Below, piece by piece: positions 1 to 59,320 of a stretch of 64,000 nucleotides of DNA. The first letter of the stretch is position 1. Every line of letters starts with the position of its first letter. Under the pieces are notes generated by a model. That model had not been told where the DNA came from and did no database searches. It saw only the letters and a program-made list of their open reading frames with translations. Source of the DNA: Dictyostelium discoideum (Eukaryota); contig CM000155.2 of assembly GCA_000004695.1 (NCBI GenBank), positions 608,001 through 672,000 on the forward strand, given 5' to 3'. Position numbers and translations under genes: made by a program.

Positions 1-2016
1 TACAAGGACGAACAGTGTGGGTGATAGTGGATCTCCTTGTTTAACTCCTCTTTTGATCTCAAAGGGTATAGTAATTTCAATTCTTGCTTCAGATTTGGTG
101 AGTAGATTCATTATCAGGTTGATTATATTGGTTGGAATGTTGATGTGTTGTAGTGATCTAAGTATTGAACCGTGTGAGATCGAGTCAAAAGCTTTTTCGA
201 AATCATATAGTGTAATTATTCCGTTAATTCTTTTATCATTACAATAGTTGATTAATTCGTTCATTGATATGATATTATCTAGAATGAATCTGCCTGGTAC
301 GAAACCTTTTTGATTGTGGTTGATCACTTTCGTTAGTATTGGGATTATTCTATTGTTTATTAGCTTTGAGTGGATTTTATATATCCAGTTAGCCAGTGTA
401 ATTGGTCTTCTGTTTTTGATTAGTTCGGGGTCTCCCTTTTTAGGTATCGTGATAATGAGGCCTTCTTTGTAATTTTTGCTAATTAGATGAGGATTTCTTA
501 GAGTGTCGTTGAATGCTGAGGCCAGTATTGGAGCTAGTTTTTCTTTGTGTGTTATGTAGAATAAGTTTGGAATTCCATCTGGGCCTGGAGATTTGTGTGG
601 GTTCAATTGTTTTATTACTTCTAGGATCTCTTGTGATGTGAATTCATTTTCAAGGTTGTCCCATGTTGAGTCCCTGGTCACTGTCCAATTTTCCAACATT
701 TCATAATGAGATGGTGGGTCATCTTCTTTGTAGTCATAAAGATTTGAGTAATATTTTACGTATTCTTCTTCGATCAATTCCTGTTTGTTGATTGTTCTAC
801 CTTGTGCATCTTTTACTGCGTTGATGGTGAAATCATTGTGTCTTTTCTTGATTCTCGCGGAGATGTACTTGAGTGAGGTTTCTTCGCAATAGTTGTTCAA
901 TTCTTGTTTAAGTTGTTCTTCTCTTTTTTTAGATTCATTTATTGCTGAAAGGGTTGCGAAGGCTTGGTCTTTAAATTCTGTCTCTAGTAGGGAGATTAGA
1001 TTTTTGATGTTTGCCTTATTGTTGTAGTCATTTTGTTTTTGAAATTCTGTGTATAGTTGTTTTATTTTGTTTAGTAAGCTGTTGAGTTGAGAGAAGGAAA
1101 TAGAGTTATGGTTGGATGACAGCTCCCTTGAATAATCGTTAAGTAGGAAGTCTATTTTCTTAAGCATTATGCTTGAGAGGATTGAGGATTTTTTTAATCT
1201 CCATCTGCGCTTGTTCATCTGTATGTTGGGTAGAGTGAAGGTGGTTGATAGGAAGTTGTGATCTGATAGAGGTATGTCATTAATTTTTGGGGGGATTAGG
1301 TTCCTTAAGTATAATTGGCTGTAGTTGATTATGCTATTGTTAAGGTATATTCTGTCTAGTCTCCTTTCCAAGATTCTTGTGAGGTTATTGTTTGTGTTGT
1401 GTATCGTTCTTGAGAAGGTGGGTCTTTTATTTAGTTGGTCCATATCCATTAGGTTATTTGAAATTCTGATGGCTTCGATTACTGTGGCCATCTCATCTGG
1501 GGATTGTGTTGTCAAGTTGCCTTGGTCATCATTTGATGTGTGATTGTCATTGAAGTCTAAACAATTGAAGTCGCCTGCTATGATGTCGATGTTTTTTTTA
1601 GGGTTAGACGTTAGGTTGTGGTATTGGTTGTTGAAGTGTTTGTTTAGTGTTGAAGCTAGTATTTTTCTTTTATCAGGTTGGGCCGGGGCGTATATGGCCA
1701 AGATTCTCGTTGTGGTATCTTTTATTAGAATGTCTGATATTATTAGTCTACCTTCTATTATGAATATTGGTGAGAGTTTTATGTTTTGGTTGTTGTGGTT
1801 TAGTATTCCTATTCCGTTGCCTCTTTTGGTTGCGCTAATGATGGAGCCAGGGAATAGCTGGTGTGCTTGTGTTGCGTCGGCGTTGAGTTCATTGACTATG
1901 GTTAGTGCCAATGAGTTTGGGGGGGATTGGGATTTGATAAAGTCTGTTTTGTTTTTGAAGGAGGTGTCAGTGCCCCAACCTCTGACATTCCATTGGTTGA
2001 TTTTGATTACTACCAT
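1..2016 (-). CDS. Retrotransposon ORF2 with apurinic/apyrimidinic endonuclease then reverse transcriptase, partial (C-terminus off window).
   Basis: The ATG is the reverse complement of 2014-2016. The hand translation gives MVVIKINQWNVRGWG...IYAPAQP...GDFNCLDF...SDHN (APE motifs), followed further 3' by the RT motif SPGPDGI. It is absent from the ORF track because it has no stop inside the window. Confidence 0.7.
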   Translation of the reverse strand, partial: MVVIKINQWNVRGWGTDTSFKNKTDFIKSQSPPNSLALTIVNELNADATQAHQLFPGSIISATKRGNGIGILNHNNQNIKLSPIFIIEGRLIISDILIKDTTTRILAIYAPAQPDKRKILASTLNKHFNNQYHNLTSNPKKNIDIIAGDFNCLDFNDNHTSNDDQGNLTTQSPDEMATVIEAIRISNNLMDMDQLNKRPTFSRTIHNTNNNLTRILERRLDRIYLNNSIINYSQLYLRNLIPPKINDIPLSDHNFLSTTFTLPNIQMNKRRWRLKKSSILSSIMLKKIDFLLNDYSRELSSNHNSISFSQLNSLLNKIKQLYTEFQKQNDYNNKANIKNLISLLETEFKDQAFATLSAINESKKREEQLKQELNNYCEETSLKYISARIKKRHNDFTINAVKDAQGRTINKQELIEEEYVKYYSNLYDYKEDDPPSHYEMLENWTVTRDSTWDNLENEFTSQEILEVIKQLNPHKSPGPDGIPNLFYITHKEKLAPILASAFNDTLRNPHLISKNYKEGLIITIPKKGDPELIKNRRPITLANWIYKIHSKLINNRIIPILTKVINHNQKGFVPGRFILDNIISMNELINYCNDKRINGIITLYDFEKAFDSISHGSILRSLQHINIPTNIINLIMNLLTKSEARIEITIPFEIKRGVKQGDPLSPTLFVLV

Positions 2017-2981
2017 TATGAGATGATATCGATCTCCTCTTGGGAGTCGTTTAGCTGCGGTTTGGATGGTGAAGGGTAGATACTCTCTATGAAGCTCTCA
2101 ATGATTCCTTTCCTTTCTTTTTTGACAGGTGTCTTAGGGGTGGATGGGATGTAAGGGTTGCTTCTGTTTATTGTTGGTGAGAGTTGGGTGACTTCATTGT
2201 TTGAGTGGATTTCCTCGTTCTTGCGTTTATGTGATGGAGGGATGTTTAGTGTCTTCTCTCTGTTTTCCGAGGATGAATGGATGTTAGTGCTTGTTTTGTT
2301 GGCATTGTCTTTTTGGATGGCGTTGGATGTTGTGGTAGTGGTTGTGGTGGGTTTGACAGATTGAGATTCTGCTGGGTTTTTGGGGGGAAGAGGTTGAGAT
2401 GACTTTTTTGCTTGGGCTTTTTTCTCTTGTGTTGATTGTTTATCAGACTGATTGTTTGCTGGGTTGTTTGTTTGGGTGTTAGGAGGATCTGTCATCTCAT
2501 CTTCTAATGGTTCCTCCGTGTTGTTTGTCTCTACTTTCTTGTTTTTCTTTTGTGAGGAGTAGGTTTTGGTGGCCGTTCTGATGGTAAAGTTTGCGATTTC
2601 TGTAATGTGTTGGCCAGATTTCATTTGATCGCCTATTTTGCATTCTATTAGACCGAATACTATGAGGTGGTCGGTGGAGTATATAGTATTGTATATTGCA
2701 TAGGGTATTTCTTCTGCAAAGGCAGTTTTGATGAGGGCGTCCACTATTCCTGCCTTTTCTCTGGGAATTCTTACTCTTCCTGTGAGGACGTGGAAGTCTC
2801 TACTGGAGGTGATGAAGGTTCCCAATTTGCTTCTATCTCTAATGATATTTAGGAGAGATTGTTCGTTTTTAATCATCAGGTGGATCATTTTTCTAGTTCC
2901 TTTGCCTATGTATATCTTGTCGATTGGGATATCGTAGTTTGAGAGTGTTTTTCTCATTTCTTCTAACCCCTTGAGATCCAT
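2016..2981 (-). CDS. Retrotransposon ORF1 (321 aa).
   Basis: ORF-track ORF MDLKGLEEMRKT..., with an ATG at 2979-2981. It lies immediately 5' of ORF2 and overlaps it, as in TRE/L1-like elements. Confidence 0.6.
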   Translation of the reverse strand: MDLKGLEEMRKTLSNYDIPIDKIYIGKGTRKMIHLMIKNEQSLLNIIRDRSKLGTFITSSRDFHVLTGRVRIPREKAGIVDALIKTAFAEEIPYAIYNTIYSTDHLIVFGLIECKIGDQMKSGQHITEIANFTIRTATKTYSSQKKNKKVETNNTEEPLEDEMTDPPNTQTNNPANNQSDKQSTQEKKAQAKKSSQPLPPKNPAESQSVKPTTTTTTTSNAIQKDNANKTSTNIHSSSENREKTLNIPPSHKRKNEEIHSNNEVTQLSPTINRSNPYIPSTPKTPVKKERKGIIESFIESIYPSPSKPQLNDSQEEIDIIS

Positions 2982-3278
2982 TTTGGGGAATTCGAGTGTA
3001 ATTGGGTAGAATCCGTTGTTCTTCTCCTAGGTTGAGAGCGCAGTCATGTTCAATATGGTCTCGCAGTATTTGGAGATGTCTTTGAGGCCTATTGATAGTT
3101 TGGGGTAGGTCTCCTTTATCTCTGCTGTTTTTGTGGAGAATTCCTTAATGAAGTTCTCCGATGCCTCGTCCATATGGGTGGAGGGGTTGGCCATTTTAGC
3201 CGCGTCTGCGTAGGAATTCATCTCGATGGGATTGCTTTGAATCGCCGATTTGGTAAGCTAGATCTGCAGATCGCGCCG

Positions 3279-3378
3279 NNNNNNNNNNNNNNNNNNNNNN
3301 NNNNNNNNNNNNNNNNNNNNNNNNNNNNNNNNNNNNNNNNNNNNNNNNNNNNNNNNNNNNNNNNNNNNNNNNNNNNNN
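3279..3378. other. Assembly gap (100 N).
   Basis: A run of N. Four further identical 100-N placeholders lie at 10332-10431, 19337-19436, 25315-25414 and 58800-58899. Confidence 1.
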
Positions 3379-5750: not shown

Positions 5751-5951
5751 CCCATTAAAAAAAGACTTTTAATATGAATAAATATTAAAAAAAAAATGAA
5801 AATGATTGGAAATAAGTTTATTATATATTTATTTAAAGAAACAACTATAAAAAATGTTTAATCAGCTTTTTTTTTAAAATCAGTTTATTTGAAATTTATC
5901 AAATAAAAAAATAAAAACTGGAAATTATTGGAAATTAAGTTTTATTTTAAT

Positions 5952-8504
<2,553 letters not shown>

Positions 8505-9176
8505 TATATATATATATATATATTTATTATTATTTTTTTGGATGTGATTTTATTTATTTGTGTGAATATTAAAAATTTGGAATTAATACAATGGAAAAAA
8601 AAAAAAAAATTTTAAACAAAATAAATATTTAAAAAAATGAGAAAAGGTATAATTTAATTAATATTAAAATAAATAATAAAAAAAAAAAAAAAAGGATTAT
8701 TATAATGAGAAAAATTTGTATAAATTATTAAATTATTATTATAAATGGGGTTCACTTTTTTGGTTAATTTTTAATTTTTAATTTTTAATTTTAATTATTT
8801 TTAATTTTGGTTTTAATTTTTTTTTTTAATTTTTTTTAATTTTTTTTAATTTTTTTTATTTTTATTTTTATTTTTATTTTTATTTTTATTTTTATTTTTA
8901 TTTTTATTTTTATTTTTTTTATTCAACTAATTAATTTAATTTAATTTAATTTAGTTTTTTTTTTTTTTTTTTTTTGTTTTATTTTTTTTTTTTTTTTTTT
9001 ATTAGGAAATGATTTAACAATTTAAAAGGAACATGTAATGCAAATAAAAAATAAAAACTAAAATATTTACCCTATTCATATATGAATTGATTCAACTCGT
9101 TAACCCATTACACTATTTTGTGGATTTTTTATTTATTCGAGTTAAAAAAAAATTCTTAAAAAAAAATTTTTTTAAG

Positions 9177-9211
<35 letters not shown>

Positions 9212-9353: not shown

Positions 9354-10095
9354 ATGGCTGATGATGGTGAATTGGTATGCAAAAATTACTCTCACAATTC
9401 TTTATTTTAAACCCTTTTTTTTCCAACAAATATTTTTTTATAAACTATTAACTTTCAACTTTTTTTAAACAAACAAATAAATAAACAAATAAATATAAAT
9501 ATAAATAAACAAATAAAATTTATAATAAAATTTAAAATAAATATAAATATATATAGCCATTTAGTTATGTAGAAGAGAATACACCAGATGGATTAGAATG
9601 TGTAATTTGTTATTGCCCATTAATTGATCCAGTTGAACATATAACACAAAATTCAACATGTAATTCATCATTTTGTAAACAATGTGTTTGCACATTGAAA
9701 TCTTGTCCCATTTGCAGATTAGAAGTTTCAAATTGGACAAGGGTACAACTTACACCTTCAACACTTCGTTTTATATTTAGACCACTATCAGATATTAAAG
9801 TAACATGTAATGTTTGTAAAAAAGAAACAACAAGAAAAGAAATTAAATCTCATGTTGAATCTTGTGGTATTAGTATGTATTATTCAATTATTTTTTTTTG
9901 TTAATTTATTAAATATTTAATATTAATAATTATATTATATCATATGACACAGAGTTACCAGAAGGACTATACCCAGAATTAGAAGTAAATAAACAACCAC
10001 AACTTCAACAACAACAACAACAACAATCATCAAATACTCTTTCAAACTTTTTTGGAGGAATTTCTGAAAAATTAAAATTCAAAACAAATGATCAA

Positions 10096-10162
<67 letters not shown>

Positions 10163-11497
10163 GAAGTCCAATAGATGATAGAAGGAATACTCCATTACCA
10201 CCACCACAACAACAACCAATTACACCAAACCAACAACAACAACCACAAATACAACAGCATCAACAAATACAGCCACCTCAACAACAGCAACCAATATATA
10301 ACCCTTATCCACCATATCCATATTATCAAACNNNNNNNNNNNNNNNNNNNNNNNNNNNNNNNNNNNNNNNNNNNNNNNNNNNNNNNNNNNNNNNNNNNNN
10401 NNNNNNNNNNNNNNNNNNNNNNNNNNNNNNNTTATCAACCTCCACCAAATCCATATTATTATAAACATCCACCACCAGCACCACATTATGTTCCACCTAA
10501 TCCTTATTATCAAATTCCACAACCCCCACCAGCACCACAACCACCACAACCACCACAACCACCCCAACCACCACAAGCACCTCTACCACCTCAACCACCT
10601 CAACCACCCCAAGCACCTCAACTACCTCAACAACTAATTCCATCACAAAAACAAGAGCATCAAAATATAAGTAGAACGTCAGCTTCAGTAATAGCAGAGG
10701 CAACAGCTGCCTCATCAAATAATCAAAAATTAAACTATCAACCACCACCACCAAGTTATTATCAACATCAACAACAACAACCAAATAATTATCAGCAACA
10801 ACAACAACAACAACAACAATCATCACCATTACCACCACCAAATTATTATTTAAATCCATTATCACAAACTCCAATTGATCCACAAATGGCAAGTACATCA
10901 GCAAATTTAATTGATAGAGAGTTAGAGAATGAACAATTTTATCCACCAATTCAAAGTTTCTCAGCCAATATTTTAGCAAATGGACAAACATTAAGCAATG
11001 TTAATTTTAATAATCAAACCTTGAAGAACATTACCTTTTTAAATAGTACAATATCGGCAAGTCGTTATCAACATACAAGATTCGAAGGTTGTATCTTTCA
11101 AGAATGTAACATCAATAGCAGTTCCTTTATCGAATCTGCATTCATTGATTGTATATTTATGAATTGTAATATCAATGGTTGCGATTTCTCAAAATCAACC
11201 CAAGAGAACTGTTATCATGTCAATAGTGATATCTCCAATTGTAATTTCTTTCAATCCTCTGGTAACAATGTCAAATATGTCGCTGTCACTATGTTAAATA
11301 ATAATTTCGCTCATAGTATTCCTCGTAGTACATTCTGTAGATGCAACCTAACAAATGCTCAATTCTCAAATTGTAATCTCTCAAAAACAAGATTTAAAAT
11401 CTCACAACTCAATTATGCTAATTTTGTCTCTGCTTATTTCGACCTTCCATTAGACCATATCTTTGATCAAAGATCTGAAAGAAAACTTTGTAAATTT

Positions 11498-11503
<6 letters not shown>
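9354..11503 (+). CDS. RING finger plus TRAF-type zinc finger protein with a Pro/Tyr/Gln-rich linker and a C-terminal pentapeptide-repeat-like domain, 3 exons.
   Basis: Exons: 9354-9374 (MADDGEL, donor gtatgc), 9557-9866 (ECVICYCPLIDPVEH...CPICR RING; VTCNVCKKETTRKEIKSHVESC), and 9952-11503. The frame breaks at an extra A at 10140 inside (AAT)n, and there is an N gap at 10332-10431. The C-terminus has CNL.NA.FSNCNLSKTRF-type repeats. Confidence 0.6.
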
Positions 11504-11896: not shown

Positions 11897-12662
11897 GTCA
11901 ACCTTATGTTCACCTGGGCCACCCTCTAATAATGTATCTTGTTGTGAGATTAGTCTTAGTACTGTCTTTTTACTTGTTTCTTGTAATTCACCAGCCATAA
12001 TTAATTCATCTAAAATATAATATGCCTTGTGAAAATTAAAAATTAGATCTAATTCACAAACCTAAATTGAATTAATGTAAATTTTATTATTATCATTATT
12101 ATTATTATTATTATTATTATTGAATATTTGAGTATTTGAGTATTTGTGGTGTGTATATATTTATACGTAAAAGTTAGTAATCTATAATATAAAAAAGGTA
12201 AAGATAGATAGAGAGAGAATAAAATTATAATTATAAAAATTTACATTTCCAAAGTATCTATCTAAAATTTCTACAAAATGATGAATAATTTCTAAAACGA
12301 TAAGTTCATTATCTTCTCTATCACAACAAACTACAAAATATAAACTTGCATATCTTTTGAAAATGATTTTATATTCTTTCCATTCTAAAAAATTACATAA
12401 TTTGGGTGGTCTATTTAGAACCATATTACCAATTTCTCTTGTAAATCTTGATTTTTCTTTATTTGTGAATGGTGAATACCATTTTGTTAATCTTGTTTTA
12501 CCTTGTCTAGATAATAATAATAAAAAGTGAAATGTCTAAAGAAAAAAAAAAAAAAAATAATAAAAAAATAATAAAATATATACATATATTAATATTTTTA
12601 TTTATTTTGATTATTTTGAATGTGGAGTATATATATATATCAAATATTTTATCCATTACCAT
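11891..12662 (-). CDS. ap1s1: AP-1 complex sigma subunit (clathrin adaptor small chain).
   Basis: Exons on the minus strand: 12535-12245 ([20 protein letters not shown]...[20 protein letters not shown]...[17 protein letters not shown], donor gtaaat) and 12061-11891 ([35 protein letters not shown]...*). It is a near match to AP-1 sigma1. The first exon (ATG at 12662-12660 followed by gtaatg) is tentative. Confidence 0.8.
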
Positions 12663-12774
12663 TCTTTAAAAATATTTTGGGTGTATAATATTAATATATT
12701 ATATATACAAACTATGGGAAAATAAAAAAAAAAAAAAAAAATGAAAAATTAAAAAATAAAAAACTAAAAAATTG

Positions 12775-12806
<32 letters not shown>

Positions 12807-16701: not shown

Positions 16702-21217
<4,516 letters not shown>

Positions 21218-22119: not shown

Positions 22120-24617
22120 ATGAAACAAGATAAAATAAATGAAATTATAAATTATTTAAAATTTATTGAAGATAATAATTTTGAAAATACTAAACATAAA
22201 AATTATAAATTTTTACATGATGAGTAAATATTTTTCCTTACAATAACACAATCATTTTTTAAATTCTGACCAATAAAAAACAGAAACAGAAAAGAAAAAT
22301 TATTTAGAATTGAAAAAAAAGTCATGAATTGTGGCGGAGATAGAAATATATCAAAAGAAGTGTGTTTAGAAGTAATTAATGATTATAGAATGGTATCACT
22401 CTGGGAAGAAATGCATAAAGGTCATATAGGAAGAGATGCAACCTATGGGAACTACAAGACTAAATATTATAATATGGGATTGTATTCTTTTGTATCTGAT
22501 GCAGTAGATACGTGTGACATTTGCCAACGAAATAGAATAAAAGGTTTGGTATCAATCATTTTTATATGATGTTTTGTAACTTTTATATTAAAACTCTTTT
22601 AATAATTTAAATAAATTAATAGGTATAACAAAGGATTTTGCTCCAATTGTAGATACCGAGGAATACTCAAGATTGGTTTATGATTTAACATCAATTAAAG
22701 GTGAACATAAAGAAAAAGTTACATACGATGATGATAATGAAAAGATACTAACTAAACTAGATGATCTTATCCAATATGACTCTGTACAACCGTACGACAC
22801 CGATGTTGTTTACATTATTCTATGCATAGATTCTTTTACAAAATTTGCTACTGGAAGGTATTTATTTTTTATTTATTAATTTATTAGTTTTCTTTTTTTA
22901 TTTTAATTATCATTTATTTTTTAGATGTTTGACAACAAAGAGAACAGTTCCCATATACAATTTTTTGGCTCTCACGTACTTTGGCAAACCTGTGAAAGTA
23001 TGGCACTGCGATAATGGACGTGAATTTAAAAACAAAGTCCAAAAAGAATTCCTAAAACTTTTTCCAGGCTCCAAGTCAGCACATGGAGCTCCTCGTACAC
23101 CAACAACTCAAGGTATGGTAGAAAGATTGAATCGAACTATCAAGGAGAGGATCTCAAAATTAAAACAACAAGAGTATGATATTGTGAACAATATAAATTA
23201 TCGATATGTTTATTAATTAATCATTTATAAATAAATTTTAGTTTTCTTGATGGTACTTCTAGGTCTCTTTCTGAACTATTAAAACAAGCTTTGTATGATT
23301 ACAATAATACAAAAACAAGAACAATTAAAATGACACCATCTCAAGCTGTTGGTATTGTTCCTTTGTTTATTAATGTTCAATCAGAACAAGACTCTCAATC
23401 AATTGGTGTTTCAGATGTTTCAAAAGAAGAAAGAACAGCTATTATTCTTGAAAATCTCACAAGTTACCAAAATCAATGGAATTCAAAACCACCAAAGGGA
23501 TTGAAAGTTGGTGATACTGTACTCTTTCTAGAAATTAAAAAAAATAATGTAAGTAATTAAAACATAAAGATTAATAATATATGAAACAGTAATAATTAAC
23601 AAATTTTATATTTAATTCTAATAGAAAATATTGATTTTGTGTAAAATTCATAAGGTAATACAGGAAGACACTAAACAACTTTATAAACTTGAATTTTTGG
23701 AAGATGGAATCAATAGCCTTCAAAAAAAAGGTTTATACTCTGGTTTTGTAGGAGGTAACAAGTTGGTTCTTTATAAACAATCAACAGTTGATATTTTTAG
23801 AACATCGCCAAACATACAAAAAGATATTGATTCTTTTACTTCTGGTCTTTATTTAAATAATGATGGGAAAGTTATTGAATTTCTGGTTCAGTTTATTAAA
23901 AATCTTGGTAAGGATTTATCCAATTTCAACTTGCATCAATTGGTAACACAAAATGATCCATTTAGGGTTTTGGAAGATGCTCTTAACAATCCATCAAATA
24001 TTCCACCTATCATTAACGATAATCCATTTCAACACAAACTCAATAATGAAATGGAACAAGAAGAAATACTCCCATTTTTAAATAATAATCCAACAGCGCC
24101 AAATTTAATGAATTGTTTGAGAAAGGATATGAATTTAAAAGAAATAGTACCACCAATACCTCAAGTGCAAATAATACCATCGTATACTATACCACAATCT
24201 GGTAGTGGTATAGTAACAACTGTTAAACGTCTCAGAGGCCGTCCTCATAAGATACCAATTGTTAATAAACCTCCTTTAAAATCACATTCTAAACCATCCA
24301 AATCACCTCTCAAATCACCATCCATTTCACCTTCCAATTCACCATTTAAATCACCATTTAAATCACCTTCCAAATCACCATTTAAATCACCTTCCAAATC
24401 ACCATCCATTTCACCTTCCAATTCACCATTTAAATCACCTTCCAATTCACCTTTTAAATCACCATTTAAATCACCTTCCAAATCACCATCAATAGGAAAA
24501 ATCGTTAATGTGATACCTTCAAAAAAAGTTGCAAAAACAAAGTTAACAAGGACACAAAAATTAGAACTTGATTTGGTTGCAATTAATAGAAGGGGGTATG
24601 GGGAAATTAGAAAATAA
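22120..24617 (+). CDS. Tdd-4 transposase, integrase-like (HHCC zinc finger, DDE core, SPXX tail), ~6 exons.
   Basis: Approximate exons: 22120-22231 (MKQDKINEI...), 22324-22545 (HKGHIG...CDICQRNR), 22622-22859 (...ILCIDSFTKF), 22925-23185 (WHCDNGREF...GMVERLNRTIKE), 23247-23548, and 23623-24617 (SPFKSPFKSPSKSP... x15). Exact splice sites were not all resolved. Confidence 0.7.
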
Positions 24618-25438
24618 AAACAAGTGGCCAAATCAAAAAAACAAAAAAAACACAAATCAACACAAAAAATTAAAAAAAAAAAAAAAAAATTAAAAATTAA
24701 AAAAAAAAAAAATTGAAAAAAATAAAAAAAAATTACATTTGTTAAAAAAAATAAAAAAAAATAAAAAAAAATAAAACTTAAAAAAAATTGAAAAAACAAA
24801 ATAAAAAAAAAAAATTGAAAAAACAAAATAAAAAAAAATTTCAAAAAAAAAGAATGATCGAAGAATTAATAGATTCGATAAAACTCTTAAAAAATTTAGC
24901 CATTGAATATGGCAATGAAGAATAGTTAGATTCAGAGGAAAATTTGACTAAATTCCTCGAAAAAGCAGCCAAAGTACTATATGTAAATAGGGGGGATGCT
25001 TTAATCGTTAAAAATTCAAATATGATGTTAGAAGCATTAGAATTAAAATCAAAACAATTTCCCCAACATTGTGTAAAAACTGTAATAAAAAACGAATAAT
25101 ATTTGGACTTTTTTGTATACAAAGGAAAATGCAAAAACATCAAATGCACCAGAGGTAACAAAGCTAGAAAAAATTCAATTGGGTGCAGTGTTTACAGTGA
25201 TATGGTAAATCAAGCAATTGAACAACTCAGGGAGTTAATAAAAATAAATCAATAAAAATAAATTAAAAAAAAAAAAATTGAAAAAAAAAGCAAATTAACC
25301 TTAATGATCAATGANNNNNNNNNNNNNNNNNNNNNNNNNNNNNNNNNNNNNNNNNNNNNNNNNNNNNNNNNNNNNNNNNNNNNNNNNNNNNNNNNNNNNN
25401 NNNNNNNNNNNNNNAAAAATTTTAAAAAAAAAAATTTG

Positions 25439-28557: not shown

Positions 28558-33010
<4,453 letters not shown>

Positions 33011-33378: not shown

Positions 33379-35436
33379 ATGTTTTCTAGATTGTTAAATA
33401 GAGGAAACGGTGGTGTAAATAAAAATATAACATCAGGACTATTATTAAGGAGAACAACAACAACAACAACAAGATTATCATATATTAATAATAGTCCTAC
33501 CTTATCAATTAGATCATTTTGTTCAAAATCAACAACAATAACATCAGATGAAAAGTTAGATTTATCAGGTTATACAACAGATAGAATTAGAAATTTTTCA
33601 ATTATAGCGCATATTGATCATGGTAAAACAACATTAAGTACAAAGTTATTATCATTGACAGGTACATTACCAAAGAGTATATATGGTAGTGGTGAAGATA
33701 GTTTGGTTCAAAAAGAAAAGAGTGAAGAAAGAAGAGAACAATATCTTGATAAATTACAAGTCGAAAAAGAGAGAGGTATAACAGTGAAGGCTCAAACATG
33801 TACAATGAAATATCGTAATAAAGAAGATGGCAAAGATTATCTATTGAATCTTATCGATACACCAGGTCATGTTGATTTTTCCTATGAAGTTAGTAGAAGT
33901 TTAATGGCATGTCAAGGCGCGCTATTGGTGGTTGATGCAGTTCAAGGCGTGCAAGCTCAAACAATGGCAAACTATTATTTAGCCTTGGATTCAGGGTTAG
34001 AAGTTATTCCAGTTATAAATAAAATAGATTTACCAACTGCCGATGTAGAAAGAGTGAAACAAGAATTGAAAGATGCTTTTGGATTTCATCCAGATGATGC
34101 AGTGTTGGTATCGGCTAAAACTGGTGTTGGTATCACTGATATCCTTCCAGCGGTAATCGATCGTATCCCACCACCTCAAGAACCAACTAAATCACCCAAA
34201 GTACCCTTCAAAGCATTGTTATTCGATTCATGGTTCGATAGATTCAGAGGAGTGATTTGTTTAATTAAAGTTGTGGATGGTAAAGTGAAAAAGGGTGATT
34301 CGATAGTATCAGCTGGTAATAAACAAACCTATGAAGTATTCGATGTTGGTATTATGCATCCTGAACAAAGACCAGCTCCTTCACTATTCACAGGTCAAGT
34401 AGGTTATATAACACCAGGTATGAAAACTAGTAAAGAGGCAAGAGTTGGTGATACTTTCTACATGAAAGACTTCCCTGTGGAACCATTACCAGGTTTTCAA
34501 CCTGCCAAACAAATGGTGTTTGCTGGTATTTATCCAGTGGATTCTTTGGATTACACTCAGTTGAGAGAATCATTTGAAAAGTTAATGTTAACCGACTCGA
34601 GTATATCAATGACCAATGAAACTTCAGTTGCATTGGGTATGGGTTTTAGATGTGGTTTCCTTGGCTTACTTCATATGGATGTGGTTTTACAACGTCTAGA
34701 GCAAGAGTATGGTCAAGTGGTTATTGCAACACCACCAACCGTACCATATAGATGTTTATTAACCGATGGTAAGGAGATATTGATTTCAAACCCTGCTGGG
34801 TACCCTTCTGCTGAACATTTATCAAAAACTTTTGAACCAATGGTAACTGGTCATGTTACATTACCAACTGAATATTTTGGTGCTGTCGTTAAACTTTGTA
34901 TGGATAGTAGAGGTATTTTAACCAATCAAGAAACATTGGAAGGTAATCGTACCAGAATCACATTCAATTTCCCTTTGGGTGAAATCGTTACCGATTTCTA
35001 TGACAATCTCAAAAGAATTAGCTCAGGTTATGCTTCTTTGGATTATGAAGACAATGGTTATCAAGAATCTGATGTTGCAAAAGTTAGAGTACTATTAAAT
35101 GGTGAGGAAGTCGATTCCCTATCAGCAATCGTACATAAATCAAATGCTCAAAGATATTCTCGTTCTTTGGTTAAACGTTTAAGAAAAGTTATCGATCGTC
35201 AAATGTTTCAAGTTAATATTCAAGCTATGGTCGGTAGTGATGTTCAAGCTCGTGAAACTATCTCTGCCATGAGAAAAGATGTAACTGCAAAATGTTATGG
35301 TGGTGATATTACTCGTCGTAGAAAGTTATTGGATAAACAAAAAGAAGGTAAAAAGAGAATGAAACAAATGGGTTGTGTTGAACTTAGTCAAGAAGGTTTC
35401 CTTAAACTTATGAAATCAACAAATGATGATGATTAA
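33379..35436 (+). CDS. guf1: Translation factor GUF1 (LepA/EF4 homologue), mitochondrial, single exon, 685 aa.
   Basis: N-terminal presequence. G-domain NFSIIAHIDHGKTTL...DTPGHVDF...NKIDL. C-terminal LepA_C-type tail ...AKCYGGDITRRRKLLDKQKEGKKRMKQMG. Confidence 0.9.
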   Translation: MFSRLLNRGNGGVNKNITSGLLLRRTTTTTTRLSYINNSPTLSIRSFCSKSTTITSDEKLDLSGYTTDRIRNFSIIAHIDHGKTTLSTKLLSLTGTLPKSIYGSGEDSLVQKEKSEERREQYLDKLQVEKERGITVKAQTCTMKYRNKEDGKDYLLNLIDTPGHVDFSYEVSRSLMACQGALLVVDAVQGVQAQTMANYYLALDSGLEVIPVINKIDLPTADVERVKQELKDAFGFHPDDAVLVSAKTGVGITDILPAVIDRIPPPQEPTKSPKVPFKALLFDSWFDRFRGVICLIKVVDGKVKKGDSIVSAGNKQTYEVFDVGIMHPEQRPAPSLFTGQVGYITPGMKTSKEARVGDTFYMKDFPVEPLPGFQPAKQMVFAGIYPVDSLDYTQLRESFEKLMLTDSSISMTNETSVALGMGFRCGFLGLLHMDVVLQRLEQEYGQVVIATPPTVPYRCLLTDGKEILISNPAGYPSAEHLSKTFEPMVTGHVTLPTEYFGAVVKLCMDSRGILTNQETLEGNRTRITFNFPLGEIVTDFYDNLKRISSGYASLDYEDNGYQESDVAKVRVLLNGEEVDSLSAIVHKSNAQRYSRSLVKRLRKVIDRQMFQVNIQAMVGSDVQARETISAMRKDVTAKCYGGDITRRRKLLDKQKEGKKRMKQMGCVELSQEGFLKLMKSTNDDD

Positions 35437-40951: not shown

Positions 40952-43900
40952 TTAAACATTAGAAAGTTTTAAACTAAACCAAATAAAAGAATCAAGAGAT
41001 AATCTAAAAATTTGTTGTTTAATTGAATCAGTTCTTTCATAATAAGCTAAAAGGTAATCACCATGAAGTGTTATATTTAAAGCGGCGATTGATGAAGGTG
41101 GAATATCACCAGTACAAACGAATTGATTCCATTCAAAAGTTTCTAAATTTAGGATATGAATTTGATTGAGTAATCTTGCTTTATTGAACCAACCACCAAT
41201 AACAATCAAAGAATTATTCCAAAGTATACTACTATGACCAACCATTGGTAATGGTGGAATACCTTTACATTCGATTTCAACCCAACCATTTTTATTTGTA
41301 GTTGGAACTGTGAATTTAAATCTATGGAAAGAATCTTCAATTGAAGAGATAACAAAAGTTAATGTATCATTGAAAACTGTAACCGATGGACCATCAGGGA
41401 AATCGATTTTATTTTTCAATTCTTTCTTCAAGAGGAATGGTAAATTAATTTCCTTTGGAGCATTCTCACCAATGAATACTTGATAAATCTTTTTAGATTG
41501 GATTTTAATGATTTCACGATCGTCAGGTGTTTGATTTGGTAAAGATTTGAAAGTTTTAATAGCTTCATAAAACATTAAATTCTCTTCATTGAATTCTGAT
41601 TGCATGTGAGTATAAAATGCTTTATAGGTGGTTGACTGTTTATTATTCAATACAACCATTAATTTATCCTCGAATAGCATGCTTGAAAGATTTAATGCAA
41701 ACACTTTTGAATGTGGTTTCGATGAATTATTCCAACCACCGAAATGGATGATTTTATCTTGATAAATGATTGAACCACCAGATGGTAATGGATGGTCAGA
41801 GTAAATGTTATTATCCGACGCTAAACTCTTATAACTATGTTCCTTTGATTCAATCTCTTTCTTTATCGTATAGAGTTGTGATATTATTTTAGATGGTGAT
41901 GGACGATTCAATGGTTCACCTGACCAACAATCTTTAATTAAATCTGCAAATGATGGTAAACAATCTAATGGAATCGATGGACGTTGACCACTAATAACAA
42001 TATTTGAGAATCTATCATGATCTTGGAATGCTATTGATCTAGTTAACAATTCATATAAAATAATACCAAATGAATAGACATCACTATTTTCATGATAATT
42101 TAATTTTTGTAATACTTCTGGTGAATGATATGATTTTGGTGTTGTACTAGTTGGAAATAGTGACGGTAAAAATGATGATTGTGAAAAATCTATAATTTTT
42201 GCATTTACAAATGGTTCAATTTCAAGACCATTGCCACTTGACTGATGGTCATTTGATTTCTCTAAAATTATACCAGAACTTGTTAAATTTGTTAATAGGA
42301 AAGGTGGAGAATGTGAATTTAATTTATCCATTGCACGAGCTATATCCAATGCAATCTTTAATTTAATATTCCATGGAATTTCAGGATGCTTTTGTCTGTC
42401 TTGAATATACTCTGATAGGGTTGTGCTACCTTTACTACCGAATGTCGGATTCTCTGTTATGATTGCGATTGGGTTCATTGAAATACCAATTATCGATAAA
42501 ACATTTGAATGACGGAAATTATATAATGACAATGCTTCATGTCTAAAACTTGATAGAATACGAGCACAATTATTTTGGAAATCTGCGCCCAACAATGGAG
42601 CATTGAATACTTTAATATTTACAAACTGTTTACCATACATTCCCATCATTGATTGTGTTGATGTACCATTTTCATTTTGATTAGAATGATCTGGTAAAAC
42701 TTCAATCTCTCTATAATCAATTTCTTTAATAAAATGACAAATTGAAAATTGATCTAATAATAGTGATCGAATTGGTACCAAAAATGAATCATCTCTATAA
42801 ATTTCAACTTTTCTTTCTTTTTCTTTTTCTTTATCTTTATCTTTTTCTTTTTCTTTTTCTTTTTCTTTATTTTGTTTTGCTAATTCTTTCAAATCTTTTT
42901 TAGATAAACTATTATTATTATCATTATTATTTGATTGAATTAGGTTTTTAGAATCTTTTCTTGAAATCTTTGGATTTGATCTAGATGAAGCAATTGGTGA
43001 ACTTGTATCATTTGAACTATTATTGTTATTTGGTTTATATTGACAATAAATACCTAATTCACCTTTAAATATTTGTGCTTCACATTCTTCCAATTTAAAT
43101 AAATGAGGTGTAACGATTTTCTTTTCAATACAATGACTACATGGTATAAAAGTTTTAAATGATACTTTATACCATTTTGAAACTAAAGATTCGAAAATAC
43201 TATAAACTTGACTTGATAAGGTTGATGGTCTAATAAATCTTATTGTAATTTCAATTGTATTACTATCATGATCAACATTTACTAAAATACGTTCTTCACG
43301 GAATTGTTGTTGTAATGTGTTGTTGGAAGATCCTGATGCTAATGATTGGAGAGTTGTTGCTGATGTTGTTGTTGTTGAGTTTGCTGTTGATGATGATGAT
43401 GATGATGATGTTGTTGACATTGATGCTATCTCTGGTACTAAAATTGCTAAATCCTTCCAACATTTATAAAGATGAGCATGTTGCATTAGTCTACTTAATA
43501 ATCTACCAAATAAACCATTTGGAATTACATCTAATGAGAATCTTCTTGAAAATTGATGAATTTCAGGTGACTCTGGAAAAGCTTCCCAAATACCTGGTAA
43601 ATCAATGATTGGTATCATTGATGAAATATTATTCAAATTTAATGCATTACTTAATGAAGATGATGAAGATGATGAATTTGAACTAATTGAACAATTACCA
43701 TTGATTGATAGTTGTGGTGGTGGTGCTAATAATGATGAAACCAATGCCCAACCAACACGAGCATTAAATGAACTTGAACGACCATTTCTAACTTTTTGAT
43801 TTGATGTAAAACTTGATAAACTACTTGTATTATTTAAATTAACACCAAAATAAGAATTACTGCGATTTGCTTCATGAATACTCATTGATCTTGATCCTGA

Positions 43901-46900
43901 TCTACCACGACCTACATTATTGCCATTGCTATTATTATTATTATTATTATTAACTTCTAATGAATAAATATTAATTGCTAAATCATTACTTTCTAATAAT
44001 GATAAAAATAATGAAAAGAATCTTTCAGGTACATAATATTTTGAATTTGTACCCCAAACATAACGTAAAACTCTATGTGGTAAAATACCAGTGATTGTTG
44101 AATCATGTGATGCATCATTTGCTTCTTCAGCACTAACACTAACATTGAATGGTAAATTTTGAGGATTAAAACAAACCAATGAAGCTATTGCCTTTGCTAT
44201 CCAAATTGGATTCAAAGCAATCATTTCAGTTTTTTGAGGTGTTGAACCTGGTTCCATACGAATGAATTGTTCAAACAATGCAATTGAACCCAATGAATTG
44301 AATAACGATTTCAATTGAGTGAAATGTGGTTCATTATGTAACTCCATTGTACGTGCCATTTGTTGTAGTGTCTTTTTGGTAACCAATGGTGGTGACATTA
44401 AATTTGATTCCTCTTTAAGATAATCCTCTAAAAACATAAAGGAGGCAGGATAGGTTTGTTTTAGTATTGGATTCTTTGCAATCATTTGTTTAATATCTCT
44501 TCTAAGTTTTCTAATTCCATCAGCATCTGATTTCAATGTTGAAACTGCATGAAAAACCAAATTAAGTGTTGGAAATAATTGTTTATATTTTAAAGATAAA
44601 CAATCGAATACTTTATCAACTTGTTTCTTACTATTGGATGAAATCTCATCCAAATGAGTACCAATGATAATGATTGTTGCTTTTTTATCATAATTATTAA
44701 TACCATGTAAATAAGATGTTATCTTTTGTTCATTTGATTTACTTGAACCAAATTTAGATAAATTGAAACAAACTGTATAAATTATATTTGGTACAAAGAA
44801 AACATGACTAATATCATTTTGCATACCTTCAAATTCCCAAAGATGAATTGTAATAGTTTTCTTTTTCTTACCATCTGGACCATCAACATTAATTGGACAT
44901 TGCCAATCTTGAATATCTAAAATATTTGTTTTACTATTACCTGAATTATTTGAATTATTACTGTTTAAATTATTTAATGATGGTAAATTACTTGAAGAAG
45001 ATGAAAAACTTGATTTTGGTAATTTTTTTAAACATTTTATTAAATTTGATTTACCAGTTGATTTATCACCCAACATAATGATTCTAGTACGATAACAAGG
45101 TACGTTGGTTCTCATGGTTTCAGAAAAGAATGAGAAAATACCTTCTTTACCTTTTTGAATATATTTCTCTGGTATATTATCTTTTAATGGTTTATTACCA
45201 GTTAATTCTAATGAATTTAATTTCTTTAAAGCTACAATACCAGGTGGTAAACGTGAGATATTATTATTTGTTAATCTAAGTTCAATGAGTGATTGCATTC
45301 TATGAATTGCAGAACTAATCGATTGTAATTGATTATTATCTAAATAAAGTTTCTTTAAATTTGTTAATAATAAAAGTTGGGGTGGTAATGACTGGATTTG
45401 GTTTCCATTTAAATTGAGTTCAGTCAATGATGTTAATTTTTGGATATCAGAAGTTAAATGAGAAATTTGATTATCTGCCAATGTCAATACTTGTAATTCC
45501 ACTAAATTAATTATACCCTCTGGTATGGAGGTTAAATGATTCTTTCTTAAATCCAGTGACCTTAATTTAGTGGATGTGCATATCTTTGGAATACCATTAT
45601 CGTCCAAATCGTTATTACTAACACGTAACACCTCCAATGTCGGGATTTGAAAGATATCAATTGGTAATTTAGTGAGATAGTTATTTGAAATATTTAAAGT
45701 TTTCAATTTTAACCAAGTATACAATGGTGGTAATACCACCAATCTATTACTACTCAATGTCACATTCTCAAGATTACTTAATCTCGTTCCCAAGAAATCT
45801 GCCATCTCTGATGAAATCTCGGTTAAATTATTCTCTTCTATACAAATGGTTCTCAATGATGTTAATCTTGCAAGATCACCTGGTAATAATTTAAATTTAT
45901 TTCTATTCAAATTTAATTCTTGTAAATCTTTAAGTTGTTTAATTTCGTTTGGTAAACTTTCCAACTCTAATGAAAACATATCCAACTTTTGTGGTATAAT
46001 TCTATTCAATTGTGATATTGATTTAGTTACTGAATTTATATATGCATATATTAATTTACATGTTGAAGGTGACTGAAATGAAAATGTTATAACTGTTTTA
46101 GTATCACTACTACAATAAACTGTAAAATTAGGTAATACTTTTAATGATGATGATAGTGATGTTGACGATATTGATGGTGTTGATGATGACGATGATGATG
46201 CTGATGACGAATTTGATATTGATGATGATGACGATGATGATGATGATTGTGGTGGTGTATATAATACAATTTTTAAAATACTGCTAAATAAAATAGCTAA
46301 ATCAGGTTCACCATGATCAATATTAACCTTTGGTCTCCAAACAATTTGTTTATGAAATAACCATAAATTACCAACTGATGATTGATGTTGACTCTTTTGT
46401 GTTGATGTTAATACCTCTTCAATATAAAGAATTTGAGCATCATCTGTATTCATACGTTCTTCAGGTGATTGGAATAAAATATCAGCTTGTTGAATAAACA
46501 TTGTTACAATATCTTTAATTGTCTTTAAATGTGATTCACTAATCTCTTTACTTTGAGCAATTGTTCCAATAGTTGGTCTTAATATAAATTTATGAAATCT
46601 TTCAACTAATAATTCCAATGTAACATCATTAAAATTTGTATATACCATAATATCTTTTAAATATTTCATTAATCTACATAAAATTGATTTATTTGGATTA
46701 TTCATTTTCCTAATCATTAAATGTAATAAAGTTTCTATAAAAAAATAAAAATAAATTTATTAATATATTATTAATATTATTATTATTAAATTGTTTAATA
46801 TATTGATGATATATTAATATTTACCAGTTTGATAATAATTTAAAAGAGTTTCATAAAATTCAACACTTATAATTGGTTCAGGTAAACGATTAAAAAATTC

Positions 46901-57912: not shown

Positions 57913-59320
57913 TTTATTATGTGTATGTATGACTATGTGTTGTGATATATAATTGTTTTTTTTTTTTTAAAAAAAAAAAAATTGCTACTTTAAAAAATTA
58001 AAATTTGGAATTTTGGAAAAAGGTTTTTTTTTTTTTTTAAAAAAACTTTTAATTTTTTTTTTTTTTTAAATTTTTTTTTTTTTTTTTTTTATGCTATGGA
58101 GTTACTAATTAGGAAATCTATTGTTAGTCAGTTACGAAAAAATAAAAAAAAAAAAAATATTAAGTTAGGAAGTGAATCTGCATTATTTTAAAATTTCAAA
58201 AATAAAAACTGGTAAATCTATCAATTTGCCAAATTTAACAGTAAATAGAAAACAATTTTAAAATTTTAAAATTTTAAAATATTATAATAAAACATACTTT
58301 TTGATTTTTTTTTGATTTTTTTTTTTTTTTTTGATTGATTTTTTTTATTTTTTTTATTTAATATTAAATAAAATATGTAGGGATAAAATAATTTAAAATA
58401 TTATTATAAAATTAATAAATTGTTTTTTTTTTTTTTTCTTTTTCTTATTTTATTTGTGATTAAAAAAAAATAAGAAAAACAGTGGGACTGCTTCAAATAT
58501 TTAAATTTATAAATTTGATTTGAAACAACCCAATCCTACCTTAAAATTGATGAGGATTGGGTTTTATTTTTTGTTTTGTATTATTTAGGTGAAAAGAAAA
58601 TTGGAAAAAAATACTGAATCGTATCAAAAAACTAACAATAAATAGAGAAATCTAAAAAAAAAGTTTTTTTTTTATTTTATTTTTTTTTAACTTTGCACTA
58701 TTATTGGTATTGTTGTTGTTTTGATACTTTTTTTATAGTTTTGTTTTTTTTTTTTTTTTGTTTTGTTTTGTTTTGTTTTGTTTTGTTTTGTTTTGTTTTN
58801 NNNNNNNNNNNNNNNNNNNNNNNNNNNNNNNNNNNNNNNNNNNNNNNNNNNNNNNNNNNNNNNNNNNNNNNNNNNNNNNNNNNNNNNNNNNNNNNNNNNT
58901 GTCTTGATTATAGATCAAATCTATTAAAGAGAAAAAAAAAGAAAAAGAGTGAAACAGTCTGAAAAATGTTTAAATAAATAATTATAAAAAGATTTACAAT
59001 TTTATATTGGGAGTGTTGCTATTTTTATATTATTTTCACCATCATATCAAAAATGTACTTTTTTTTTTTTTTTTTTTTTTTTTAGGGGGATCCCAACACC
59101 TCTACATGTAAATAAATAAAAAAATAAAAAAAAAAAATAAAAAAAAAAACACACACCCACAACAAGTGTTGTTGTTGGAAATTATAAATTTTATCTGGGG
59201 GGTAAGGGGGGGGGACTTTTTTTTTCTTTTTGAAAGGGAACCGGGGAATGGAAAATATATATATATATTAAAAAATAATAAAAATAAAAATAAAAATAAA
59301 ATTTAAATTAAAAATGTTAG

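Follow-up and report, generated by a model that had tools for sequence, protein, structure and literature searches.

The gene at 9354 to 11503 (+ strand) of the window, the 64-kb stretch of Dictyostelium discoideum DNA analysed here, starts with an ATG at 9354 and ends with a TAA at 11501 to 11503, where the original prediction had placed it. We consider it probable that this is an intact three-exon gene encoding a 610-residue probable RING E3 ligase in which a predicted beta-helix would form the target-recognition surface. The elements of the coding region are as follows.

9354..9374 (+): exon 1, encoding MADDGEL in phase 0 and followed by GTATGC; 43% GC, versus 12.6% in the intron
9375..9556 (+): intron 1 (GTATGC...ATATAG), 182 nt, 12.6% GC
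9557..9872 (+): exon 2, residues 8 to 112 and the first base of codon 113, with the RING-like domain and the C2HC finger; 29% GC
9873..9952 (+): intron 2 (GTATGT...ACACAG), 80 nt, phase 1, 11.3% GC
9953..11503 (+): exon 3, closed by the TAA at 11501-11503, with an N gap inside
10108..10161 (+): (AAT)18, in-frame poly-Asn without an indel, the site of an alleged frameshift; identical in GCA_054883475.1
10332..10431 (no strand): 100-N assembly placeholder, 45 bp in GCA_054883475.1: ACCACCTCCACCACAACATCCATATTATGTAAATACAAATAGAGG

The GC content is 28% to 43% in the exons and 11% to 13% in the introns, and the intron borders are GT..AG. The ATG of exon 1 coincides with the start of a 610-residue gene call in GCA_054883475.1, a gap-free D. 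discoideum assembly. A reading-frame check found no stop in any exon of the gene, and the probability that the 483 codons of exon 3 are stop-free by chance is 2.4e-14 at the exon's own base composition, which excludes a chance ORF. An antisense ORF of 167 residues at 10500 to 11000 (- strand) was rejected as a gene, its Val-rich product being that of CAA/CCA repeats. The neighbouring ORF, GUF1, is an exact match to B0G189 of D. discoideum AX4, and the window is assigned to this strain.

According to the original prediction, an extra A at 10140 creates a stop inside (AAT)n, exon 3 changes frame there, and the cause is either a miscall or a pseudogenizing indel. The run is exactly 54 nt long, corresponding to 18 Asn codons, and contains no stop. 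Tandem Repeats Finder reported 0% indels in the array at 10096 to 10162, and a single frame is uninterrupted from 9953 to 10331, with NNN…NRSPIDDRR read continuously. Since there is no break inside the run, neither a microsatellite miscall nor a pseudogenizing indel is needed, and the reported (AAT) frameshift is a counting error. That the gene is a pseudogene, or that a sequencing miscall breaks its frame at this A, has a negligible probability: the sole basis for such a break is an earlier manual frame count, whereas in GCA_054883475.1 the run is identical and the CDS intact. No frameshift or premature stop was found, and all 610 codons are intact once the gap is filled. The +1 offset claimed for the downstream frame is real, but it originates in the N gap and not in (AAT)n.

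The gene is indeed interrupted by an N gap inside exon 3, as had been noted; the window has five gaps, each of exactly 100 N. GCA_054883475.1 is 100% identical to the window over 9354 to 10331, including (AAT)18, and over 13 kb the unique sequence of the two assemblies differs by only four substitutions. Its gene call is independent and has the same start and stop as the window gene. Taken from this assembly and not from AX4 itself, the gap content is 45 bp, in frame and without a stop or splice signal. It completes the protein as ...YYQ-TPPPPQHPYYVNTNRG-YQPP... and brings the spliced CDS to 1833 nt, i.e., 610 codons plus the stop. The +1 offset across the gap arises because the 100-N placeholder stands for 45 real bp (100 - 45 = 55 = 1 mod 3).

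It is very unlikely that two genes flank the gap, one encoding a small RING-zinc finger (RING-ZnF) protein and the other a separate pentapeptide-repeat protein, or that the gap in AX4 hides a larger insertion or a stop. Although the AX4 gap is given as 100 N, Naegleria has a stand-alone RING-ZnF paralogue of 195 residues (P0153), and no AX4 protein for either half was found in the protein collections searched, the near-identical gap-free assembly shows 45 in-frame bases and one 610-residue product. Moreover, the first in-frame ATG past the gap lies 150 codons downstream, at 10886, and the ORF upstream of it is open, has proline- and glutamine-rich coding, and is exon-like in its GC content (34%). 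The gap thus hides only 45 in-frame bases and the locus is not broken. A complete product of 610 residues can therefore be modelled for this gene, for which the collections searched apparently contain no AX4 protein entry.

The domains and motifs of this product are encoded as follows.

9599..9718 (+): variant RING, candidate ligands C22, C25, H35, C42, C47, C50, C57 and C60, then R61
9806..9865 (+): C2HC zinc finger of the TRAF/LNX type, C91-x2-C94-x11-H106-x3-C110
9986..10885 (+): low-complexity linker, ~280 residues when gap-filled, with P 67, Q 64, N 39 and Y 20
10517-10631: 9-bp repeat array in the linker
10748-10759 (+): PPxY motif PPSY
10835-10846 (+): PPxY motif PPNY
10964..11440 (+): pentapeptide-repeat domain, identified by three Pfam models above threshold, PDB phmmer and register analysis
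10982-11251 (+): pentapeptide block 1, 18 contiguous units in one register (GQTLS...NCNFF)
Between the pentapeptide blocks: irregular stretch of ~27 residues
11333-11440 (+): pentapeptide block 2, ~7 units, register shifted by one
11441..11500 (+): C-terminal tail after the last repeat (DLPLDHIFDQRSERKLCKFY), described from sequence only, AF2 being unreliable here

The original prediction was essentially right about this architecture, in which a RING-like domain, a C2HC finger, a PY/Q-rich linker, and pentapeptide repeats form an uncommon combination. The linker was said to carry PPxY-like motifs, and two of its motifs, PPSY and PPNY, are true PPxY. The Pfam models that had been named as a check gave a divided result, with the pentapeptide repeat passing and the RING and zf-TRAF models failing their thresholds.

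The RING call failed in Pfam but was recovered by profile comparison with solved structures. No Pfam RING model was above threshold on the Dictyostelium sequence alone: zf-RING_2 gave 10.3 bits for a 238-residue fragment and 16.4 bits, the best score, for a 116-residue fragment (cut-off, 27.3), and zf-RING_5 gave 13.7 bits (cut-off, 27.9). In a phmmer search of the PDB with the single sequence, the matches were nearly all RINGs, with RNF168 at 4e-3. When a family profile built from seven sequences was searched against the PDB, significant homology to solved RING domains was obtained, with LNX2 at 2.6e-14, LNX1 at 4.5e-11, TRIM21 at about 6e-11, RING2/BMI1 at 2.5e-9, and RBBP6 at 1.8e-8. Weaker matches were those to RAG1 (7e-6), TRAF5 (3.2e-5), TRAF6 (1e-4), RNF125 (9e-4), and SIAH1 (1e-3). 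Among the matches listed at E ≤ 1e-3, all 60 are RING or RING-like domains.

Canonical RING ligands are spaced C-x2-C-x(9-39)-C-x(1-3)-H-x(2-3)-C-x2-C-x(4-48)-C-x2-C. Seven of these eight ligands are present here, and the fourth, a His, is replaced by Ser44; the canonical His is missing from every family member, with Asn or Gln at the position in Naegleria. When the invariant His35 is included, the pattern becomes C-x2-C-x9-H-x6-C-x4-C-x2-C-x6-C-x2-C, with eight ligands in a swapped order. This invariant upstream His suggests a C2-H-C-C4 RING arrangement.

Alternatively, the gene could be intact and its RING catalytically dead, serving as a structural or scaffolding zinc module in a protein that would be an adaptor or, via the beta-helix, a decoy. 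We consider this rather unlikely. The substitution of the fourth ligand throughout the family and the subthreshold scores of all Pfam RING models would fit such a loss, but eight Cys/His residues with RING-compatible spacing, including His35, are invariant across Amoebozoa and Heterolobosea. The usual E2-contact and linchpin positions are also kept, as an Ile (I24) follows the first Cys, a Pro (P58) the seventh ligand, and an Arg (R61) the eighth. In addition, RBBP6, a strong profile match, also has Asn at the fourth-ligand position and is a functional RING-like domain whose ligands are shifted.

For the adjacent zinc finger, which had been predicted to be a TRAF zinc finger, a C2HC finger was supported by the profile (through TRAF5 and TRAF6), but a zf-TRAF Pfam match was not found. 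The finger lies directly after the RING and can be aligned with ZF1 of the TRAF, LNX, RAG1, and SIAH modules. The profile alignments run through both RING and finger, covering profile positions 2 to 98 with LNX2, 4 to 97 with TRAF5, 11 to 98 with TRAF6, 11 to 94 with RAG1, 14 to 97 with RNF125, and 13 to 99 with SIAH1, and the LNX1 alignment does likewise. C91, C94, H106, and C110 are all invariant in the family, and in total Dictyostelium and Naegleria have twelve invariant Cys/His residues in common. The zf-TRAF model (PF02176) had no match at E ≤ 1 in the Dictyostelium sequence, and its best match in a Naegleria relative had an E value of 0.0013. P0116 scored 13.8 bits (threshold, 27). TRAF proteins are defined by a C-terminal TRAF-C/MATH domain. 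Neither half of the protein gave a Pfam match to MATH/TRAF-C, and the product is therefore not a TRAF protein.

An AF2 model of the N terminus, made with a four-sequence alignment, had a pLDDT of 52.8, too poor for zinc-site geometry. The top Foldseek matches of this low-confidence model were LNX/TRAF-type RING-finger modules, as in the profile search, which is a weak corroboration. Judged by the profile comparisons, the first 110 residues share homology with the module that the RING and the adjacent C2HC finger form in E3 ligases of the LNX and TRAF types.

Relatives come from Naegleria. The N terminus is 36% identical over 101 residues to Naegleria fowleri P0153 (pairwise E value, 2e-16), and the RING-ZnF module heads proteins with BTB, pentapeptide, and TLDc domains in N. 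fowleri, Naegleria lovaniensis, and Naegleria gruberi. By sequence, the N-terminal module is thus linked to pentapeptide repeats in a Naegleria protein family. An exact look-up of the 610-residue product in its H330 and Q330 versions found neither in the protein collection, and an exhaustive HMMER protein search with the C-terminal 205 residues as the query returned no self-match and no dictyostelid orthologue. As the product itself is absent from the collections searched, the lack of dictyostelid orthologues is uninformative. A joined query of the N- and C-terminal domains had no match at E ≤ 1e-3 in a word-index protein search, and of the 150 pattern matches that the N-terminal family alignment gave in metagenome contigs, none was confirmed. 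Nothing relevant to a Dictyostelium protein with RING and pentapeptide repeats was retrieved from the literature.

The predicted C-terminal pentapeptide-repeat domain was confirmed by PF13599 (53.0 bits; threshold, 38), PF00805 (42.5; threshold, 20.2), and PF13576 (40.4; threshold, 27). The repeats show a five-residue periodicity, with F, L, or I in the centre and with positions i-2 and i-1 taken by small or polar residues. The best phmmer matches in the PDB were AlbG (1.7e-7), QnrB1 (6e-7), and MfpA (1.5e-5), together with AhQnr, and NleL and SopA were among the weak matches. In the exhaustive HMMER search, 2920 library proteins matched the C-terminal 205 residues at E ≤ 1e-3. These are generic pentapeptide proteins of 19% to 37% identity, and the similarity therefore gives no clue to the target. 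The Dictyostelium repeats are not specifically closer to those of Naegleria than to bacterial repeats, P0116 ranking 116th. A bacterial origin of the repeat domain by horizontal transfer was considered and is not favoured; the best matches are only 19% to 37% identical, and the exon composition is native.

[quoted passage not shown] A single-sequence AF2 model of the C terminus alone, too poor to judge this fold (pLDDT, 47.5), contained short strands with a period of five in residues 25 to 120 only. Its top Foldseek matches were AlbG, the SV2 luminal domain, and MfpA, all at E ≥ 6.7e-3, again a weak corroboration. The C-terminal tail may cap the helix.

Pentapeptide proteins that mimic DNA are typically strongly acidic. 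The domain encoded here has 7 D/E and 10 K/R residues, a net charge of +3, and a pI of 8.4, and a reading of the repeats as a DNA mimic was rejected on charge. In that reading, the domain would be of the Qnr/MfpA/AlbG type and would direct ubiquitination to a type II topoisomerase or some other enzyme that binds DNA, which we regard as unlikely. AlbG, QnrB1, AhQnr, and MfpA are the best solved-structure matches (1.7e-7 to 1.5e-5) and AlbG is the top Foldseek match, but the former reflect generic repeat similarity, the latter rests on the model with a pLDDT of 47.5, and the domain lacks the acidic surface.

Most likely, judging from its domains, the product would function as a single-chain RING E3 with a target-binding beta-helix. 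The RING-ZnF module would bind three zinc ions, and conservation alone suggests that at RING site 2 the canonical Cys-x-His pair would be replaced by His35 and Cys42, both invariant. Through Ile24, Pro58, and Arg61 as the linchpin, the module would recruit a charged E2. The ~280-residue P/Q/N/Y-rich linker would serve as a flexible tether, and WW-domain proteins could bind to its two PPxY motifs. At the other end, the predicted pentapeptide-repeat beta-helix would be the target-recognition surface and, because the domain is not acidic, would bind protein rather than mimic DNA. The protein can accordingly be described as an uncharacterised probable RING E3 with the beta-helix as its presumed substrate-binding part.

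The Zn-RING-Zn modules of LNX1 and LNX2 (PDB 5DIN and 5H7R) and the RING-ZF1 modules of TRAF6 and TRAF5 (3HCT and 7L3L) share with the Dictyostelium protein a RING followed ~30 residues on by a C-x2-C-x11-H-x3-C finger. However, in the Dictyostelium module the fourth-ligand His is changed to Ser and an invariant His lies upstream. The Dictyostelium protein also lacks the PDZ domains of LNX and the coiled coil and MATH domain of TRAF, and it ends in a predicted pentapeptide beta-helix instead. The uncharacterised Naegleria RING-ZnF/coiled-coil/BTB/pentapeptide/TLDc proteins (e.g., N. fowleri XP_044564133 and the N. gruberi and N. lovaniensis paralogues) are 34% to 37% identical to it in the RING-ZnF. 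They have the same invariant Cys/His residues, likewise lack the canonical His, and carry pentapeptide repeats on the same polypeptide, whereas BTB, coiled-coil, and TLDc regions are all missing from the Dictyostelium protein, and its repeat domain is much shorter (~25 pentapeptides).

This occurrence of RING-ZnF with pentapeptide repeats in Naegleria also hints at a conserved functional link. We propose, tentatively and as a rather doubtful extension, that the N-terminal module may represent a distinct ancient eukaryotic RING subfamily (C2-H-C-C4, the third and fourth ligands being swapped, with an obligatory C2HC finger) functionally coupled to pentapeptide beta-helices in Amoebozoa and Heterolobosea. 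If so, it would be a single-chain counterpart of the Cullin-3/KCTD9 system, in which the beta-helix would provide a dedicated receptor for the substrate. The stakes are modest, and the link between module and repeats can be addressed in a tractable model organism.

The pairing of a ubiquitin ligase with a pentapeptide beta-helix is otherwise known from BTB-type KCTD9 and from bacterial HECT-like effectors. KCTD9 and plant FIP2 combine BTB with pentapeptide repeats and have been described as Cullin-3 adaptors, and they have a ubiquitin-ligase-associated N-terminal module and a C-terminal pentapeptide beta-solenoid (PMC9658877), the arrangement predicted for the Dictyostelium protein. In Dictyostelium, however, the presumed ligase module is a RING-ZnF in cis and not a Cullin-3-recruiting BTB, and there is no pentamerisation domain; no Pfam match to BTB was found in the Dictyostelium protein, whereas the Naegleria relatives carry PF02214. 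NleL and SopA have a pentapeptide beta-helix and a HECT-like E3, and the helix has been proposed to bind substrate (PMC3013003). They thus resemble the Dictyostelium protein, as predicted here, in the fusion of an E3 module to a pentapeptide-repeat beta-helix but differ from it in their HECT-like thioester chemistry, in their reversed domain order, and in being bacterial secreted proteins.

The gene at positions 9354 to 11503 (+) is intact and uncharacterised, and its domain combination is real but has precedents. It lies in very AT-rich DNA of the Dictyostelium type and has three exons.

Exons of the RING-pentapeptide gene
Exon 1, (+), starts at ATG 9354, 21 nt, encodes MADDGEL, followed by GTATGC
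Exon 2, 9557-9872 (+), followed by GTATGT
Exon 3, (+), 9953 to the TAA at 11501-11503, preceded by ACACAG

The GC content is 28 to 43% in the exons versus 11 to 15% in the introns and flanks, and the chance of a stop-free exon 3 (483 codons, own base composition) is 2.4e-14. An antisense ORF at 10500 to 11000 (-; 167 aa, Val-rich), opposite the CAA/CCA-rich linker, was rejected as a gene and regarded as a by-product of repeat composition. Convergent with the 3' end of the RING-pentapeptide gene, with ~400 bp between them, is the gene for the sigma (small) subunit of a clathrin adaptor (~11902 to 12673, -).

The original prediction placed a frame break at 10140, inside (AAT)n. However, the run (10108 to 10161) is exactly 54 nt or 18 codons, the array at 10096 to 10162 has 0% indels (Tandem Repeats Finder), and one stop-free frame reads through the run and the peptide beyond. 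That peptide, previously assigned to frame +1, shares the frame of the upstream exon; the assignment was a manual counting error. The coding frame shifts, by +1, only across the N run at 10332 to 10431, which is one of five.

N runs, each exactly 100 N
3279-3378
10332-10431
19337-19436
25315-25414
58800-58899

Since all five have the same length, they are placeholders of unknown length, and a frame or distance measured across any of them is therefore meaningless; the run at 10332 to 10431, the sole one checked, stands for 45 bp. The flagged anomaly is thus an artefact of counting and of the gap placeholder.

The matching locus in a second, gap-free D. discoideum assembly (L001; GCA_054883475.1, contig JBTAPE010000029.1) was reached by a look-up with the neighbouring DDHD-domain ORF (5955 to 8549, -). 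Over 9354 to 10331, (AAT)18 included, it matches the window at 100% identity, and it has 45 bp, ACCACCTCCACCACAACATCCATATTATGTAAATACAAATAGAGG, in place of the 100 N. The clathrin-adaptor gene corresponds to L001 positions 5903 to 6674, where the gene call contains PF01217. With the L001 fill, the spliced coding sequence is 1833 nt (610 codons plus stop) and unbroken, and a 610-residue gene call is present in L001 at exactly this position. At the sequence level, the pseudogene reading is refuted. The same data make the rival reading, that the two halves belong to two separate genes, unlikely. The protein collections searched yielded neither an AX4 protein for one of the halves nor a dictyostelid orthologue, which is a weak negative since the 610-aa product itself is also absent there.

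Right of the gap, the two assemblies differ at four bases (10504, 10657, 10660, and 10678), one of which gives H330Q. These are the sole substitutions in unique sequence over the ~13 kb compared, all at third codon positions and all within 250 bp of the gap, and they probably reflect low-quality read ends in one assembly rather than polymorphism. The remaining differences are homopolymer lengths (at 8955-8956, 9179-9181, 9221, 12724-12727, and 12775-12778, among others) and one poly-T tract (8763 to 8849), T-rich with periodically interspersed A/G in the window and T at 12 of these positions in L001. Such differences, which lie in intergenic DNA, probably stem from the assembly or the technology. 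With so few differences over 13 kb, the second assembly is in essence a further, independent reading of this genome.

A RING followed by a TRAF-type zinc finger had been proposed for the N-terminus. Tested as a single sequence against Pfam, this assignment failed: zf-RING_2 scored 10.3 to 16.4 bits versus a cut-off of 27.3, and zf-TRAF gave no match. A phmmer search of the PDB returned RING domains almost exclusively, with weak E-values (RNF168, 4e-3). A module profile built from seq­uences of seven family members was also searched against solved structures.

Matches of the module profile to solved structures
LNX2 (5DIN), E 2.6e-14, profile positions 2-98, RING and the finger after it
LNX1, E 4.5e-11, 4-98
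TRIM21, E 6.4e-11, 8-78
RBBP6, E 1.8e-8, 8-82
RAG1, E 7e-6, 11-94
TRAF5, E 3.2e-5, 4-97
TRAF6, E 1e-4, 11-98
RNF125, E 9e-4, 14-97
SIAH1, E 1e-3, 13-99

Foldseek with a low-confidence AF2 model (pLDDT 52.8) likewise ranked the LNX2, TRAF6, and RNF125 modules first, so that the proposed pair of domains is right at the superfamily level. The protein is not a TRAF, as no MATH domain was found in it.

Twelve Cys/His positions do not vary within the family: C22, C25, H35, C42, C47, C50, C57, and C60, plus C91, C94, H106, and C110 of the finger. The canonical fourth-ligand site (the His of C-x-H) is never His, being Ser44 in Dictyostelium and Asn/Gln in Naegleria, and the invariant His precedes the third Cys by 1 to 6 residues. 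Most simply, this would be a cross-brace RING with His35 and Cys42 as third and fourth ligands (C2-H-C-C4), which, if true, would account for the low Pfam scores. Against the rival reading of an inactive RING, the usual contact positions of RING-E2 interfaces are occupied, by Ile24 (C-x-I-C), Pro58 (C-P-x-C), and, directly behind the final Cys, Arg61.

The predicted PY/Q-rich linker was borne out, with two canonical PPxY motifs. It spans ~280 residues, consists mostly of P (67), Q (64), N (39), and Y (20), and contains the (AAT)18 run and a 9-bp CCACAACCA array.

The pentapeptide-repeat domain predicted at the C-terminus is genuine, with three Pfam models passing their thresholds: PF13599 (53.0 bits; cut-off, 38), PF00805 (42.5; 20.2), and PF13576 (40.4; 27). 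Residues 438 to 527 form 18 unbroken pentapeptides in a single register, followed by ~27 irregular residues and ~7 further units in a register offset by one. In sequence, the nearest proteins of solved structure are AlbG, QnrB1, AhQnr, and MfpA (E, 1.7e-7 to 1.5e-5). DNA mimicry of the Qnr type is nevertheless unlikely, because the domain carries a net charge of +3 (pI, 8.4). HMMER, run exhaustively over 1.84 billion representatives, gave 2920 proteins at E <= 1e-3 (best E, 4.9e-19), with 19 to 37% identity throughout, and the similarity of the repeat domain to its relatives is generic.

The match of one of the 150 listed pentapeptide proteins, P0116, extends to the N-terminal 120 residues as well (E, 3e-13); P0116 is the 1099-aa Naegleria fowleri protein XP_044564133. 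Profile and full-length searches placed its family in N. fowleri, N. lovaniensis, N. gruberi, and two environmental contigs, with the architecture RING-zinc finger, coiled coil, BTB (PF02214), long pentapeptide repeats, and TLDc. A stand-alone 195-aa N. fowleri paralogue (P0153) shows 36% identity to the Dictyostelium N-terminus over 101 residues (pairwise E, 2e-16). Separate RING-zinc finger and BTB fragments share one 730-kb N. fowleri contig. The Naegleria family (P0116 and P0153 to P0162) is uncharacterised.

A single-chain RING E3 is the best-supported explanation for the Dictyostelium protein. The RING-zinc finger module would recruit E2~Ub, the predicted pentapeptide beta-helix would bind the target, and the disordered linker joining them may dock WW-domain partners. 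Ubiquitin-ligase machinery is paired with a pentapeptide beta-helix in two precedents: NleL and SopA, where the helix was proposed as the substrate-binding domain (PMC3013003), and KCTD9, in which BTB is combined with a pentapeptide beta-solenoid (PMC9658877). The Naegleria proteins unite both themes. The gene call is already present in a public assembly, as are related architectures in Naegleria proteomes; the conserved RING with its proposed ligand swap and its recurrent pairing with pentapeptide repeats are the sole points meriting follow-up.

Several other loci were seen in the window. Long retroelement ORFs occupy 1 to 3026 (-), among them a 699-aa ORF with a reverse transcriptase domain (RVT_1; E, 1e-23) that extends past the window start and, close by, is broken by an N gap. 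At 22830 to 24614 (+), two ORFs (128 and 330 aa), one with an integrase-like motif (...WHCDNGREFKNKV...), had no Pfam match at E <= 1e-5 and may be a degraded transposon remnant adjoining the gap at 25315. A 1295-aa ORF (28845 to 32729, +) has an N-terminal RUN domain and a C-terminal Rubicon homology domain, and the intronless ORF at 33379 to 35433 exactly matches GUF1 (B0G189/XP_001733053), which identifies the window as D. discoideum AX4. A 1934-aa ORF (40955 to 46756, -) encodes a Roco-family kinase with LRR, COR-A/B, protein kinase, RGS, and Kelch domains.
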